A stretch of 64,000 bases of DNA from a virus. Below the pieces are notes generated by a model. It saw only the letters and a list, made by a program, of their open reading frames with translations. It had not been told where the DNA came from and ran no database searches. Where the stretch lies: positions 11,860 to 75,859 of IMG/VR virus record IMGVR_UViG_3300034104_003304; one strand, 5' to 3'. Shown piece by piece: positions 12,427-28,470 of the stretch (position 1 is its first letter; every line of letters begins with the position of its first letter). Both the position numbers and the translations under genes were made by a program.

Positions 12427-12508
12427 CGTAAGTCCTTATTTATCAACGATTTAGGGTTTAGGTGTCCCGCCCGCCGCGTCGTAAGTCTTTATATACCAAC
12501 ACTTTACG
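12427..12508. repeat. 82-bp bipartite palindromic element, copy 1 (GC core reversed)
   Basis: Two CGTAA-N4-TTR-N5-YAA-N4-TTA(C/G)G arms 53 bp apart around CCCGCCCGCC. Confidence 0.9.
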
Positions 12509-12520
12509 TCAAGTTCGCGT

Positions 12521-12536
12521 AGCAAACGATGTGCCA
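12521..12536 (-). promoter_or_regulatory. Sigma54 -24/-12 site
   Basis: Reverse complement TGGCACATCGTTTGCT matches TGGCAC-N5-TTGCW. Confidence 0.7.
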
Positions 12537-12670
12537 TGTATTCTAGGAAAGATTTTTTGTCATTTGGCATGAAAATATATTTGAAAAAATCCAAAGATTT
12601 CGCTTGACGATGACGATATATACTGTATAATAGAAGTACAAGAGAGAACGATAGAGAAAAGGAAAAGAAA

Positions 12671-12886
12671 ATGAACAACAACGAAATCAAGCTGGGCGAT
12701 GTGGTGGTGTGGAACTTTGTGTTTGACAGGCCGGAAGATGATGGGGTTGTTGTGTCTGTCAAGGGTAATAAGGTGGAAGTGGAGTATAAGGGATACGTGA
12801 TGGGTGGTGGATCTAAGGTATATAGGGAATGGCTGAACGTTGACGAAATCATGCTGAAATCGGAATATGATTCGCAGTATATCTGA
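12671..12886 (+). CDS. Small early protein (SH3-like beta pattern)
   Basis: Upstream TTGACG-17-TATAAT and purine-rich leader. Confidence 0.6.
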   Translation: MNNNEIKLGDVVVWNFVFDRPEDDGVVVSVKGNKVEVEYKGYVMGGGSKVYREWLNVDEIMLKSEYDSQYI

Positions 12887-12896
12887 AAAATATTTC

Positions 12897-12933
12897 TAAG
12901 GTACTTGACACTGGCCAACCGATACTATATAAT
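12897..12933 (+). promoter_or_regulatory. Composite sigma70/sigma28-like early promoter (representative of about 20)
   Basis: TTGACA-17-TATAAT overlapped by TAAGG-16-ACCGATAC. Confidence 0.75.
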
Positions 12934-12967
12934 ACAGAGACAAGAGAAAAGGAAAAGGAATAGAAAA

Positions 12968-13171
12968 ATGGAAAAGGTCAATAGCGTAAACGGTTTCATC
13001 AGCAGTCTCCCCAAGATTCGCAAGCGTAGAATCTGGAAAGTGATCATCAACGGTACAGTTGTTCAAGGTGTTTCCGCTGATGATAATCGCAAATCAACTG
13101 CACAAGCGTATATCGCAAACAAGTATCCCGGTCAGGTTTTCACTCTGGAATTTTCTCACTGGAAAATCTAA
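12968..13171 (+). CDS. Small early protein, paralog A
   Basis: FISSLPKI..WKV..NGTVVQ..DNRKS.AQ.YI..KY.GQ shared with 13804-14022. Confidence 0.75.
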   Translation: MEKVNSVNGFISSLPKIRKRRIWKVIINGTVVQGVSADDNRKSTAQAYIANKYPGQVFTLEFSHWKI

Positions 13172-13211
13172 GGTACTTGACAACCCCTTGCCGATACTAT
13201 ATAATACAGAC

Positions 13212-13358
13212 ATGAACAACACAAAGAAAATGATTTACTGGAATACTTCTAATCGCACGGGCGACCGATATGAGGTATGGTATGATGGTAAGGTAGTCGC
13301 ACGACACATTACGTTCAATGAATGTTGGAATCTTGTTCAGTCTCTCCAAGCTAAGTAA
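13212..13358 (+). CDS. Small early protein (near-leaderless transcript)
   Basis: ATG lies a few nt after the TATAAT of a consensus promoter. Confidence 0.5.
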   Translation: MNNTKKMIYWNTSNRTGDRYEVWYDGKVVARHITFNECWNLVQSLQAK

Positions 13359-13517
13359 GGTATATAGAATGATTACGATTATAGAATATGTTCAGTTGTT
13401 TGCTCTTATCGCATGTTGTGCGTTTATCACCTATACGGTACATGAGATAGGTAACGCCGTACATTCAATGCTGAACGATTGAATAGGTATACGAATGTAT
13501 ACTCCATAAAGACTCGA

Positions 13518-13599
13518 CGTAAACCCTTGGTAGATAAGGACTTAGGGCGAATCGGGCGGGCCAAATTTGACGTAACTCCTTACGCCACAACGACTTACG
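13518..13599. repeat. 82-bp element, copy 2
   Basis: Arms at 13518 and 13571; core GGGCGGGCC. Confidence 0.9.
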
Positions 13600-25601: not shown

Positions 25602-25773
25602 TTTAGCAACGAGGGAGATTGATATGACAAAGATAATTGGAATTGGTACTGTCACGCCCAAGGGTACTGTGACGGCTATCAAGCGTGATGGTGTGGTGAT
25701 TGTTGATAAGGGTGCGAAGGTTGTGTTGACCTTTGCCGAAGTTGAAAAGATGATGAGTGTCTAACTAAGGGAG

Positions 25774-25998
25774 ATGATTATGACTATGAATGTTTTTACT
25801 AACTTTTCGCTGGCTACTGGTAAGCACCTCGTTTGCAAGTATCCCAAGCATGGACGGTTGAACGTGTTGAAGTTCCACAAGGGTACTGTTGAGAGTCTTG
25901 GATTCGGCCCGAATGGCCCGTATGCTAAGATTCGTAGTGAGGATAACACTATCCGTACTCTGCGATGTGACCGCATGGTTGATCCGGTTTGTTCGTAG
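25774..25998 (+). CDS. Hypothetical protein
   Basis: RBS AAGGGAG. Confidence 0.55.
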   Translation: MIMTMNVFTNFSLATGKHLVCKYPKHGRLNVLKFHKGTVESLGFGPNGPYAKIRSEDNTIRTLRCDRMVDPVCS

Positions 25999-26051
25999 TC
26001 ACTCCCTTGACTCGGCGGGAACCCTGTGTTACAATGGGGTTCCCGCTTCAC

Positions 26052-26127
26052 GGGGCGTAAGGTAAGCCGGTTGCATCCGACACTCTTATAAGGTGTTCAT
26101 AGGTACGTTCGACTCGTACACGCCCTA
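26052..26127 (+). tRNA. trnI: tRNA-Ile(UAU)
   Basis: GGGGCGT/ACGCCCT acceptor, ACACT-CT TAT AA-GGTGT. Confidence 0.82.
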
Positions 26128-26599
26128 CTGTGATATGTTATCACTGTCTAGGGAGATGAATTGATAGAAATTATGATTATGATAATCGTGTGGTCAATGC
26201 TATATCAAGGTGAATAAATCGGGAATATATCTTTATATAATAAAGTAATCAATTTTCCCCCAACCATAACAGGGCAAACTATATGAAAATCGTAACCATA
26301 ACTATGGAACTTGGTATTGATAATATGGAAGATGAGATTGACTTCTCCAATAAGGAAGCAATCGCAGACTTTCTAAGTAAAATGTTATATGAAGATGCGG
26401 AGTGGTTTGGTGGGTTCGGACCTGAGAATATAACAGAAGTAAAGGATACCAATGGTTGAACTATCTGCTAATGAAATGTGGAAGATCCTAGACGCTATAA
26501 CAGCATATAAAAAAGATTATGCAGTAAGTGGGGCAGTCCAGAAAACTATATCTGGTATAGAGAAAAAGTTGAGAACAGAGTTGAAAAAGTAGAAGTCGC

Positions 26600-26681
26600 C
26601 GTAAGTCCTTACCACCAAAGGGTTTAGGACAAACGCGGCCCGCCCCGCTCGTCGTAAGTCCTTATCTAGCAACAACTTACG
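26600..26681. repeat. 82-bp element, copy 9 (core reversed)
   Basis: Arms at 26600 and 26653. Confidence 0.9.
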
Positions 26682-26756
26682 TCAAAAAGAAATTTCTAAT
26701 GCTGACCCCTTGACACTGACGATACGTATGGTATCATTGGTGAAAAGGAGAGAGTC

Positions 26757-26978
26757 ATGGTTGCGATGAATGAAGATGTTGCCGACACGGTACTCGCGGT
26801 TCAGTGCAATGTTTGTGCTGCCGATCATATCATCTTTGTAAAGATGCACGATTATATCGAATGGAAAAATGGTGCAGGTTTTATTCAAGACCTTATGCCA
26901 TACCTGTCCGATAGTGATCGTGAACTTTTGATCAGTGGCGTTTGTGGCCCGTGTTTTGATTCAATGTTTCCCTCTTGA
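26757..26978 (+). CDS. Small Zn-ribbon protein
   Basis: CNVC...IQDLMPYLS..DRELLISGVCGPCFD. Confidence 0.7.
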   Translation: MVAMNEDVADTVLAVQCNVCAADHIIFVKMHDYIEWKNGAGFIQDLMPYLSDSDRELLISGVCGPCFDSMFPS

Positions 26979-27041
26979 CAAGCCGATAAGATATAGTATA
27001 CTGTTGACACGTAGTTTGATTTCCCACTAGGAGTTTTGAAG

Positions 27042-28241
27042 ATGAGCGATTACAACAAGTTGACGATTGATTCTGACGTTTCCGCTGGTTCGTTCGTGCG
27101 TACCCTGCAAGGCAACACCGGTACGGGTTTCGCAGAAGGCACCCATGTCCATAAGGATTGGTGGGCGAAGACGAAAACGTTTGAACAGGTCAAGCAGGAT
27201 ACGCAGACCGCGATTGATAACCGTGAGGATATTCTCACTGAAATCAAGAACATTTTCTGCACGAATGAGGGTGGTGATTTTTATTTCAAGCTGGCAGACG
27301 GTCGCAAGTTTCGCCCGACTGACCATGCTCTTGAGCAGTTCAGCACCCGCGTTGGCGTGACGAGTTCTTCGTTCCTGCGTGAGATGCGTAATATCGAAGG
27401 GTTCGATGGTAACGATAGCAACACGATGGCTATCGTTGGCAACAATGCCATGCGTCGAATCGACCAAGATAAGAAGTTCCGACTGCGTACCTATACGGAT
27501 GGAACGTGTCGTGCGTTCGTGACTGAGCAGTATGCCCCGATTGATAATCGTTGGTATCTGGATGTTCTTGGTGAGTTTATTCCCGGTGGTCGTTTCAGCC
27601 ACTGGCGTGGCGATGAAGATACTATCTATGGTAATGTTCTCATCCCCGATACCATCATGGACTACGGTGCGGACGATAGTGACTACGGTGGCATGATCAG
27701 CGTGGGTAACTGTGAGATCGGCACTCGCCGCATCACGCAAACGCCCAGCCTGTTTCGTGCTATCTGCATGAACGGTTGCATCTGGGGACAAACGGAAGGC
27801 CAGAAGATTCGTCGCGTTCATCGTGGCAATATCGACCTCGCCGCTCTGAAGTTGGAAATCGCTAAGAATATCCAAGATCAGATTCCTCTGCTTGCTCCTA
27901 GCATCAAGAAGTTTCTGGAAACCCGTTCGCTGGAACTTGGTAAGACTTCCGCGAAGAGTGTTATCGCTAGTGTTTCGTCGGATTATAAACTTAGTAAGAA
28001 GGAAGCAACGGAATTCCTTGAGCAGTTTATCACCTATGAATCTGAACAGAATACGCTGTTCGGTATTATCAACGGTCTGACCCGTGCTGGTCAGAAGTTC
28101 GATAATAAGGAATGGGTGCGATTCGATGAGATCGCTGGCGGTCTGGCTCAGATGGATTCCTCGCAGTGGAATAGCGTTCTGCGTCGTGCGGATACCTTTA
28201 CTCAGAAAGACTATGAGAAGGTTTTCGCTCTGACCGCTTGA
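27042..28241 (+). CDS. DUF932-like phage protein
   Basis: GMISVGNCEIG...SLFRAICMNGCI...RRVHRG...TLFGIINGLTRA. Confidence 0.65.
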   Translation: MSDYNKLTIDSDVSAGSFVRTLQGNTGTGFAEGTHVHKDWWAKTKTFEQVKQDTQTAIDNREDILTEIKNIFCTNEGGDFYFKLADGRKFRPTDHALEQFSTRVGVTSSSFLREMRNIEGFDGNDSNTMAIVGNNAMRRIDQDKKFRLRTYTDGTCRAFVTEQYAPIDNRWYLDVLGEFIPGGRFSHWRGDEDTIYGNVLIPDTIMDYGADDSDYGGMISVGNCEIGTRRITQTPSLFRAICMNGCIWGQTEGQKIRRVHRGNIDLAALKLEIAKNIQDQIPLLAPSIKKFLETRSLELGKTSAKSVIASVSSDYKLSKKEATEFLEQFITYESEQNTLFGIINGLTRAGQKFDNKEWVRFDEIAGGLAQMDSSQWNSVLRRADTFTQKDYEKVFALTA

Positions 28242-28338
28242 GTATAATAGTGGGAGGGGAAGGGGCTGGTAGGACATTATCAATAAATTATCCTGCCAGT
28301 TCCCTAACCTCTCAAAATCTTGGGAAGCTGGTTCTCGC

Positions 28339-28470
28339 TGTAAGTCCGTTGCCCGTAAGGGTTTACGGCAAGCGGGGCCGGGGATATTTGATATAAATCC
28401 TTATTTGATAATGGTTTACGTCAAATCTAAAAGTGACTGAACGTAAGTCGTTTGTTCTCAAGTACTTGCG
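28339..28470. repeat. 82-bp element, copy 10, plus an extra single arm (28442-28470)
   Basis: Arms at 28339, 28392 and 28442. Confidence 0.85.

Follow-up and report, generated by a model that had tools for sequence, protein, structure and literature searches.

The early region of an uncultured phage, present in lake-water metagenomes of 21 studies, carries ten copies of an 82-bp element, and the question raised by this locus is what such an element could be doing there. The deoxyribonucleic acid (DNA) analysed here, referred to as the window, is a stretch of 64,000 nucleotides which corresponds to bases 11860-75859 of a 75,859-bp IMG/VR contig with an estimated completeness of ~51%. A first-pass annotation, made from the letters of the window alone, had described each copy as a pair of palindromic arms and had proposed either recombination sites or phased binding sites for a DNA-bending protein. 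The analysis given below describes a widespread cis-element which is solid and, as far as could be found, apparently undescribed. The strongest clue to its role, which was absent from the first-pass annotation, is its membership of a fixed two-part module, whose other half is a particular class of downstream promoter.

Ten copies in the window and a family in related phages

The arm pattern CGTAA-N4-TTR-N5-YAA-N4-TTACG was searched with up to two mismatches allowed. In the window 18 matches were detected against 0.17 expected from shuffled sequence, all of them on the + strand between 12427 and 28470, and zero further copies were found when the remainder of the 75,859-bp contig was scanned. 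Repeat finding and alignment together resolved ten 82-bp elements, with nine copies forming a family of 93 nt and the tenth (28339) falling in two other repeat families (D2 and D3). Both the starts of these ten copies and their absence from the rest of the window are as the first-pass annotation had given them. The copies are as follows:

12427..12508, + strand: element copy 1, arms at 12427-12455 and 12480-12508, core C-rich on the + strand
13518..13599, + strand: element copy 2
15088..15169, + strand: element copy 3, abutting the stop codon of a short upstream open reading frame (ORF)
17253..17334, + strand: element copy 4, core C-rich on the + strand
18562..18643, + strand: element copy 5, upstream ORF 18340-18576 ending within the distal arm
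20153..20234, + strand: element copy 6, distal arm degenerate, beginning 10 nt past tRNA-Asp
21962..22043, + strand: element copy 7, distal arm degenerate
24668..24749, + strand: element copy 8, upstream ORF 24299-24682 ending within the distal arm
26600..26681, + strand: element copy 9, core C-rich on the + strand
28339..28420, + strand: element copy 10, one or both arms degenerate
28442-28470, + strand: extra third arm beyond copy 10, 50 bp after the second arm of that copy

Each element consists of two 29-bp quasi-palindromic arms flanking a 24-bp spacer with a GC-rich, GGGCGGGCC-like core. The arm starts lie 53 bp, or five helical turns, apart in all ten window copies, and alignment bore out the earlier description of the core as reversed (C-rich on the + strand) in copies 1, 4 and 9. 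One arm is degenerate, with at least three mismatches, in each of copies 6, 7 and 10, and the window copies are mutually 60-77% identical. The end of the third arm overlaps the -35 region (TTGCGT) of the promoter serving the gene at 28517, and it is due to this arm that the first-pass annotation ended the array at 28470.

To follow the element beyond the window, a single IMG/VR scan was made with a 16-base piece of the arm as query, which led to 119 loci on contigs of related uncultured phages. These loci contain 213 distinct two-arm elements. The fixed arm spacing claimed for the window extends to the relatives, being 53 bp in 227 of ~270 pairs, 52 bp in 18 and 50 bp in 11. As a control for ascertainment bias, cases were selected on the proximal arm and promoter alone (n=178), and in 126 of these 178 the distal arm lay exactly 53 bp upstream. 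Conserved among the unselected columns of this set are TAA, TT, AA, ACTTA, G, C and, at the centre, GGSSGGCC. In each arm the outer pentamers, CGTAA on one side and TTACG on the other (~24 bp apart), are retained along with an inner TT and AA, with the intervening bases varying unpaired.

Five relatives with genomes of 125-238 kb were available, four of them at least 95% complete and two with terminal repeats. Where the array was complete, the element copies were confined to a single stretch of 15-18 kb; in one genome (G004) only ~4 kb of array was visible, at the contig end. For three relatives the flanking regions were fetched, and in each of them the array starts at a divergent junction adjoining the terminase module, the same as in the window. 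The terminase is only ~52% identical between the window phage and these relatives that keep the array position. At this distance neutral DNA would be saturated, from which it follows that selection acts on the motif as well as on its spacing.

The view of the first-pass annotation that the element was undescribed was upheld. Neither the 17-kb array (megablast) nor one element (blastn) matched any of the cultured phages (50,697 phage records), and searches with terminase and rIIA against cultured phages found distant relatives only, with <40% identity. A description of such an element was not found in literature searches, and the public runs listed as containing the phage include no RNA data set.

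Two further observations concern related sequences. In several lake runs, compared over 11500-29500 of the window, a strain of ~90% identity was far deeper than this phage; the related lake strain shows indels and different cassette junctions, which points to a swarm of co-occurring variants. It should also be noted that near-identical copies of a 44-bp near-perfect palindrome, AGGACTTACGCAGGCACACTATATAGTGTGCCTGCGTAAGTCCT, are present in three filamentous cyanobacterial genomes (L126, L138 and L140) and share 10-mers with the phage arms. As the rest of the element is missing from them, these palindromes are probably an unrelated hairpin family.

The module of stop codon, paired arms and promoter

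When oriented by its promoter, the module reads in the order stop codon, distal 29-bp dyad, GC-rich spacer (central GGSSGGCC), proximal dyad, A/T-rich UP-like stretch and promoter. On the upstream side, 56 of 156 cases show an ORF stop codon 0-9 nt ahead of the element and two thirds show one between -45 and +40 nt of it, with ~25 of the 156 cases of relatives having the stop inside the element. On the downstream side, a strong sigma70-type promoter lies no more than 400 bp away from 172 of 190 distinct elements, on one side for most and on both sides for six of them, and all early promoters share one direction. The element has a polarity of its own in this orientation, with the outer half-sites being different (distal CGTAAACCC, proximal CAACRACTTACG) and both inner ones being of the TAAGTCC type. 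Two unrelated ORFs of the window, 18340-18576 and 24299-24682, were seen to run into the distal arm, which supplies their final codons and their stop.

Every copy in the window had been placed by the first-pass annotation between the end of a gene and the promoter of the next. This is generally so, but at copy 3 the next sigma70-type promoter is 460 bp off, and downstream of copy 7 there is a sigma28-type motif alone (CTAAAG-N15-GTCGATAA, ~22061-22089). The promoters found after the other copies are:

12604..12631, + strand: promoter after copy 1, TTGACG-16-TATAAT
13734..13761, + strand: promoter after copy 2, TTGCAA-16-TATAAT
17394..17421, + strand: promoter after copy 4, TTGACA-16-TATAAT with GCCGATA in the spacer, 59 bp from the arm
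18669..18697, + strand: promoter after copy 5, 25 bp from the arm
20285..20312, + strand: promoter after copy 6, GCCGAT in the spacer, 50 bp from the arm
24781..24808, + strand: promoter after copy 8, TTGACT-16-TAGAAT with GACGATA in the spacer, 31 bp from the arm
26710..26737, + strand: promoter after copy 9, TTGACA-16-TATCAT with GACGATA in the spacer, 28 bp from the arm

The distance from the proximal arm to the -35 region was found to be stepped. It peaks at 28-29 bp and then at 39-40, 50-51 and 62 bp, and after collapse to 91 sequence clusters the distances group at 17-18, 28-29 (25 clusters), 39-40 (11), 50-51 (5) and 61-64 bp (5). The circular concentration of this distance was R = 0.61 for a period of 11-11.5 bp, and in the main distance class the arm centres lie near -78 and -131. 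Steps of ~11 bp indicate that the element is held in a fixed rotational register with the promoter.

The promoters linked to an element also belong to a distinct class, which has a -35 region of TTGACA, GCCGATA in the spacer and TAGAAT as its usual -10 region. Of 225 element-linked promoters, 159 (71%) have in their spacer the sequence CGATA, which also occurs in the sigma28 -10 consensus GCCGATAA, compared with 85 of 451 (19%) others in the same arrays. At least 11 promoters of the window with 12/12 consensus positions sit within the cassettes (the promoter-led gene groups between elements) and are free of an element.

The linked early promoters have a composite appearance, the spacer between the sigma70 -35 and -10 regions holding a sigma28-type -10 (GCCGATA, GACGATA), and a TAAAG or AAGTTT box is found immediately upstream of such promoters (window 12590-26740; loci L005-L123). 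A small palindrome, CCTTACGATATTGTAAGG, composed of the arm words CTTACG and GTAAG, was observed directly past the proximal arm in the 33-44-bp distance classes (L028, L031, L039, L044, L069, L100 and L123).

Lack of a conserved fold and a candidate twin operator

The first-pass annotation had favoured phased protein sites at the DNA level over ribonucleic acid (RNA) hairpins, noting that the N4 positions often fail to pair, and the wider family agrees with it on both counts. Over the 213 distinct copies, the variable positions of the would-be hairpin are Watson-Crick in only 28-49%. The strongest mutual information among these copies links neighbouring bases (e.g. GT, AC or AG at arm positions 6-7) rather than pairing partners. 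A long-range helix between the two arms pairs no better than the local hairpins do, and an all-against-all search of the copies for an excess of pairing found no stack of pairs and no stacked Watson-Crick covariation. RNAalifold gave 0.0 kcal/mol and no structure for 120 copies on either strand, the consensus fold of the ten window copies amounted to -0.32 kcal/mol with 0 compensatory pairs, and Rfam at E <= 1 returned tRNAs and chance matches only. Identity that is fixed by position and lacks pairing reads, as far as sequence comparison can tell, as the signature of a protein-binding dyad and not of an RNA hairpin; the ~11-bp steps to the promoter likewise suggest sites at the level of DNA.

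From these observations we infer that the element is a twin operator or upstream control site, where a predicted protein would act on RNA polymerase in a fixed rotational register, a reading which is given an even chance of being correct. An elongated, sequence-specific dimer would bind each 29-bp arm in the manner of protein p4 of phage phi29 on its 27-bp sites. Two such dimers would stand five helical turns apart on the same face of the helix, in register with RNA polymerase, and could jointly set the activity of the ~ten promoters that lead the cassettes. Because the linked promoters are already near consensus and possess UP-like tracts, a timed and co-ordinated shut-off after early expression would be the most likely effect; this, or some other kind of timing, is favoured over simple activation, which is possible. 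A complex bound immediately past the stop codon would in addition keep transcription of the upstream cassette from reading through, and this would fit the absence of ordinary terminators. The protein could be encoded by either the phage or its host. The fuller picture, in which this predicted protein and RNA polymerase form a phased nucleoprotein switch that turns ~ten early operons on or off together and insulates each of them, is proposed tentatively and is possible rather than probable.

In phi29, the p4 sites are 27-bp pseudo-palindromes, two per region, which are read at their outer ends, and bound p4 dimers (with p6) bend DNA, switch early promoters off and contact RNA polymerase, the promoters concerned being A2c, A2b and A3 (Camacho and Salas 2010, PMC3100819). 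The element shares with these sites pseudo-palindromes of 27-29 bp that are conserved at the outer ends, occur in pairs and lie near early sigma70/sigmaA promoters. However, the sequences are unrelated (CTTTTT-15-AAAATG in phi29, CGTAA-N19-TTACG here, where binding is predicted), and a phi29 genome has one control region whereas there are ~ten here, each after a gene end. Another parallel is with the stoperators of Cluster A mycobacteriophages, reportedly described by Brown et al. in 1997 as 13-bp asymmetric sites bound by the L5 gp71 repressor. Stoperators are spread over a temperate phage genome, where the immunity repressor binds them and blocks elongation. By analogy, the element has many intergenic copies in a consistent orientation to transcription, and one protein would serve many units, but it differs in being an 82-bp pair of dyads restricted to the early region of large phages that are apparently lytic.

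A number of points weigh against the operator. Three of the ten window copies (3, 7 and 10) break the 28.5+11n rule for the distance to the -35 region, the phasing counts are partly affected by shared ancestry, and core orientation is weakly tied to the direction of transcription (108:64). The spacing of 53 bp is long for direct contact between dimers unless the DNA is bent, and whether promoters are switched on or off is purely inferred. Pfam or PHROGs scans of ~50 window proteins detected no credible DNA-binding domain; the only helix-turn-helix (HTH) matches were sub-threshold and lay in a homing-endonuclease-like gene at 11469-12311. No gene of the HU/IHF family was found in these phages, and the p4 profile PF05464 matched no genome, a result which is uninformative given that its control likewise matched none. 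Native element sites were not found in bacterial genomes either. A scan of these for the inner-arm pair gave 18 matches, all of them unrelated intergenic hairpins or heptamer repeats without full arms, a single ideal arm searched against 401 genomes of one bacterial class gave one match, which is chance level, and five named bacterial genomes contained zero element sites.

The absence of an HU/IHF gene also bears on the reading of IHF as the binder, which was not supported. Only 11 of the 213 elements carry the full WATCAR-N4-TTR, as does one of the ten copies in the window, and the likeness of the half-arms to the IHF consensus is limited to YAA-N4-TTR, itself a part of the search pattern.

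Several genes in and around the array may be noted. The gene at 11469-12311 (+ strand), the first of the early arm, encodes 280 aa that include nuclease motifs of the GIY-YIG and HNH types and, at the N-terminus, a weak HTH. No counterpart of it was found in the flank regions fetched from three relatives, and on this ground its product is probably a mobile homing endonuclease. The first two cassettes hold two paralogous genes for small basic proteins (67 and 72 aa; 12968-13171 and 13804-14022) with 77% DNA identity, which are conserved in several relatives and were matched to no known family. An ESM Atlas look-up of one basic duplicated early protein gave no credible DNA-binding candidate. Small proteins conserved beside the array in relatives (39715, 40200, 41686 and 41942) look acidic or secreted and not DNA-binding. 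One of them, encoded at 41686-41901, is 71 aa long, has an N-terminus resembling a signal peptide and contains an arginine-rich repeat; it is 63-83% identical in the relatives with ~52% terminase identity, where its gene sits just past the array.

Alternative readings and what the element would mean

An alternative to the operator is that the element, transcribed as the last part of each cassette, marks a gene boundary through RNA, as a terminator, attenuator or 3'-end stabiliser of the PeSL type, with the promoter phasing being inherited module structure. The PeSL of T4-type phages is a simple G(n)-loop-C(n) hairpin which has been shown to terminate transcription (Arbiol et al. 2010, PMC2839356; Comeau et al. 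2014, PMC4122927). The layout seen here matches that of PeSL (PMC2839356), with a stop codon, a G/C-rich element, an AT-rich stretch, a near-consensus sigma70 promoter and one or more small orphan genes, and in both cases a composite intergenic module is repeated through a hyperplastic early region in which the gene content between modules varies. The element is located where a terminator belongs, 0-9 nt past the stop and before the AT-rich region and near-consensus promoter, and the early region shows no excess of canonical terminators to serve instead (13 intrinsic-terminator-like sites against 12 expected). Single copies fold somewhat better than shuffles (z ~ -2), and in 108 of 172 cases the coding strand carries a G-rich core followed by TTT. 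Yet neither a conserved helix nor compensatory change was detected on either strand, folding of the GC core is at shuffle level (z ~0), and the poor pairing of the variable stem positions given above speaks against a hairpin. The U-run is ~3 nt long with the second arm following it, and a simple terminator scan was passed by two cores only, those of copy 6 (+ strand) and copy 4 (- strand). The element also differs from PeSL in its 82-bp pair of 29-bp dyads with 53-bp spacing and no conserved terminator hairpin, in its promoter class bearing GCCGATA, and in the ~11-bp steps to the -35 region, which a boundary acting through RNA would leave unexplained. This explanation is regarded as unlikely.

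It is improbable, too, that the repeats are a passive, non-regulatory linker kept by homologous recombination which shuffles promoter-led cassettes, a role that has been put forward for PeSLs. Cassette order and content do differ among relatives: in L031 the counterparts of 22.9-23.8 kb and 20.3-22.5 kb follow each other in that order, and in L018 and L088 cassettes have been replaced. In assembled contigs from lake strains that occur together, different cassettes are joined within elements, with flanks of 21-51 nt only; these joints may reflect related strains or cross-matching of repeats and were not used as evidence of active recombination. The ends of high-scoring segment pairs are only ~1.5-fold enriched at the elements; many breakpoints lie at ordinary gene or tRNA boundaries (e.g. 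19977/20068 and 22480 in L017), and relatives share largely collinear arrays. The constraint that persists at ~50% protein identity, on single positions as well as on the exact spacing, far exceeds the needs of a homology patch, and copies that are as diverged within a genome as those of the window would be poor substrates for homologous recombination. As the enrichment is just 1.5-fold and breakpoints occur at plain boundaries, exchange between repeats is plausible as a by-product and not as a purpose. Ordinary homologous recombination could swap cassettes in this way because the same 82 bp recur every 1-3 kb. The PeSL-like portable cassette junction put forward in the first-pass annotation is likewise plausible as such a by-product. 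It should be noted that nine tRNA genes are present (19131-20143, 26052-26128 and 38520-38591), seven of them within the early array, and that the tRNA block is placed elsewhere in the array in relatives L017 and L005.

The first-pass annotation had also considered that a bending or nucleoid protein might organise or pull in the first-entering DNA, apart from any promoter control. This would suit the restriction of the element to an early region that starts at a divergent junction beside the packaging genes, as well as the unidirectional early promoters and the phased geometry. However, two relatives with direct terminal repeats according to IMG/VR carry the array at 58-74 kb of a 200-kb record (G002) and at 113-131 kb of a 238-kb one (G003), and a tight coupling to one promoter class at set distances would be unneeded for a role in entry. 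Such an architectural array is considered quite improbable.

A further reading, to which a still smaller chance is given, is that the arms bind an enhancer-binding protein which activates adjacent antisense sigma54-like promoters. A motif of the form TGGCAY-N5-TTGC was found between the element and the sigma70 promoter in 4 of the 10 window copies and in 23 of 160 in relatives, pointing into the element and nearly always antisense, with a predicted start at the arm edge. In the window these sites are:

12521-12536, - strand: antisense sigma54-type box, TGGCAY-N5-TTGC
13654-13669, - strand: antisense sigma54-type box, TGGCAY-N5-TTGC
17346-17361, - strand: antisense sigma54-type box, TGGCAY-N5-TTGC
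20247-20262, - strand: antisense sigma54-type box, TGGCAY-N5-TTGC

The motif is, however, missing from ~85% of elements. Relative to the predicted start, the arms would occupy +4 to +85 on the downstream side, whereas the normal place of enhancer sites is at least 80 bp upstream. A search for the sigma54 activator domain (PF00158) gave nothing convincing, with two weak generic AAA+ matches only, and no encoded enhancer-binding protein was found. Apart from these boxes, a forward sigma54-like promoter (TTGGCACGGGAAGTGCA) was detected at 15366-15382, before a small gene starting at 15438, with four GCAAAATGC-type repeats located 80-140 bp upstream of it (window 15228-15382, + strand), which is the usual enhancer geometry. 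The 15228-15382 stretch is conserved in L025 and L033.

A dedicated system of site-specific recombination, integron- or Xer-like, with each 12-5-12 dyad as a recombinase core site, corresponds to one of the two proposals of the first-pass annotation, that of recombination sites. The size of the dyad is like that of tyrosine-recombinase core sites, the element has a position at cassette boundaries and cassette order varies. Nevertheless, Phage_integrase (PF00589), Resolvase and Y1 transposase (Y1_Tnp, PF01797) were absent from five genomes, three of them complete, an attC-like folded form was not seen, and the single polarity relative to promoters, largely collinear arrays and weak breakpoint enrichment do not agree with it. 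This reading is largely refuted and only a very slight chance is left to it.

Doublets known as BIME/REP in enterobacteria are hairpins mobilised by RAYT transposases, and the related RIP elements bind IHF. The present element is like them in that its palindromic units come in pairs, have a linker of fixed length and sit at operon 3' ends, but it has neither a conserved hairpin nor a Y1 transposase that could be found, and the full IHF consensus is rare in it. That it is a selfish repeat of REP/REPIN or MITE type spread by a transposase, as the doublet of palindromic units at intergenic 3' positions (BIME/REPIN-like) and the flanks TTGA...TCAA might suggest, is hardly credible, since no Y1 transposase/RAYT was found, the flanks are inverted without direct target duplications, the copies, though old and divergent inside any one genome, keep their positions from genome to genome, and they occupy one 15-18 kb region at a fixed distance from one promoter class, with no true copies found in the bacterial genomes scanned. 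Among the known kinds compared here, of which T4-type PeSL cassettes and the site pairs of phi29 p4 come nearest, the element was set apart as a variant and as a member of none.

The diversity of lake viruses consists largely of large uncultured phages, whose early regions are made up almost entirely of orphan genes and whose regulation is uncharacterised. An element with defined conserved bases gives a concrete handle on early regulation in such phages and is usable as bait for the predicted binder. It marks the early promoters that lead cassettes in >100 contigs and predicts where early operons start and stop. If the switch reading proves true, it would represent an undescribed operator system for an early regulon in >100 contigs of large uncultured freshwater phages, and the tie to promoters with sigma28-type (sometimes sigma54-type) signals could couple early expression to the motility state of the host. 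The rigid repeats would account for cassette exchange among co-occurring strains without a recombinase. Should the binder be encoded by the phage, element and protein would constitute a new regulator-operator pair, and should it be encoded by the host, the element would show how these phages read the state of their host.

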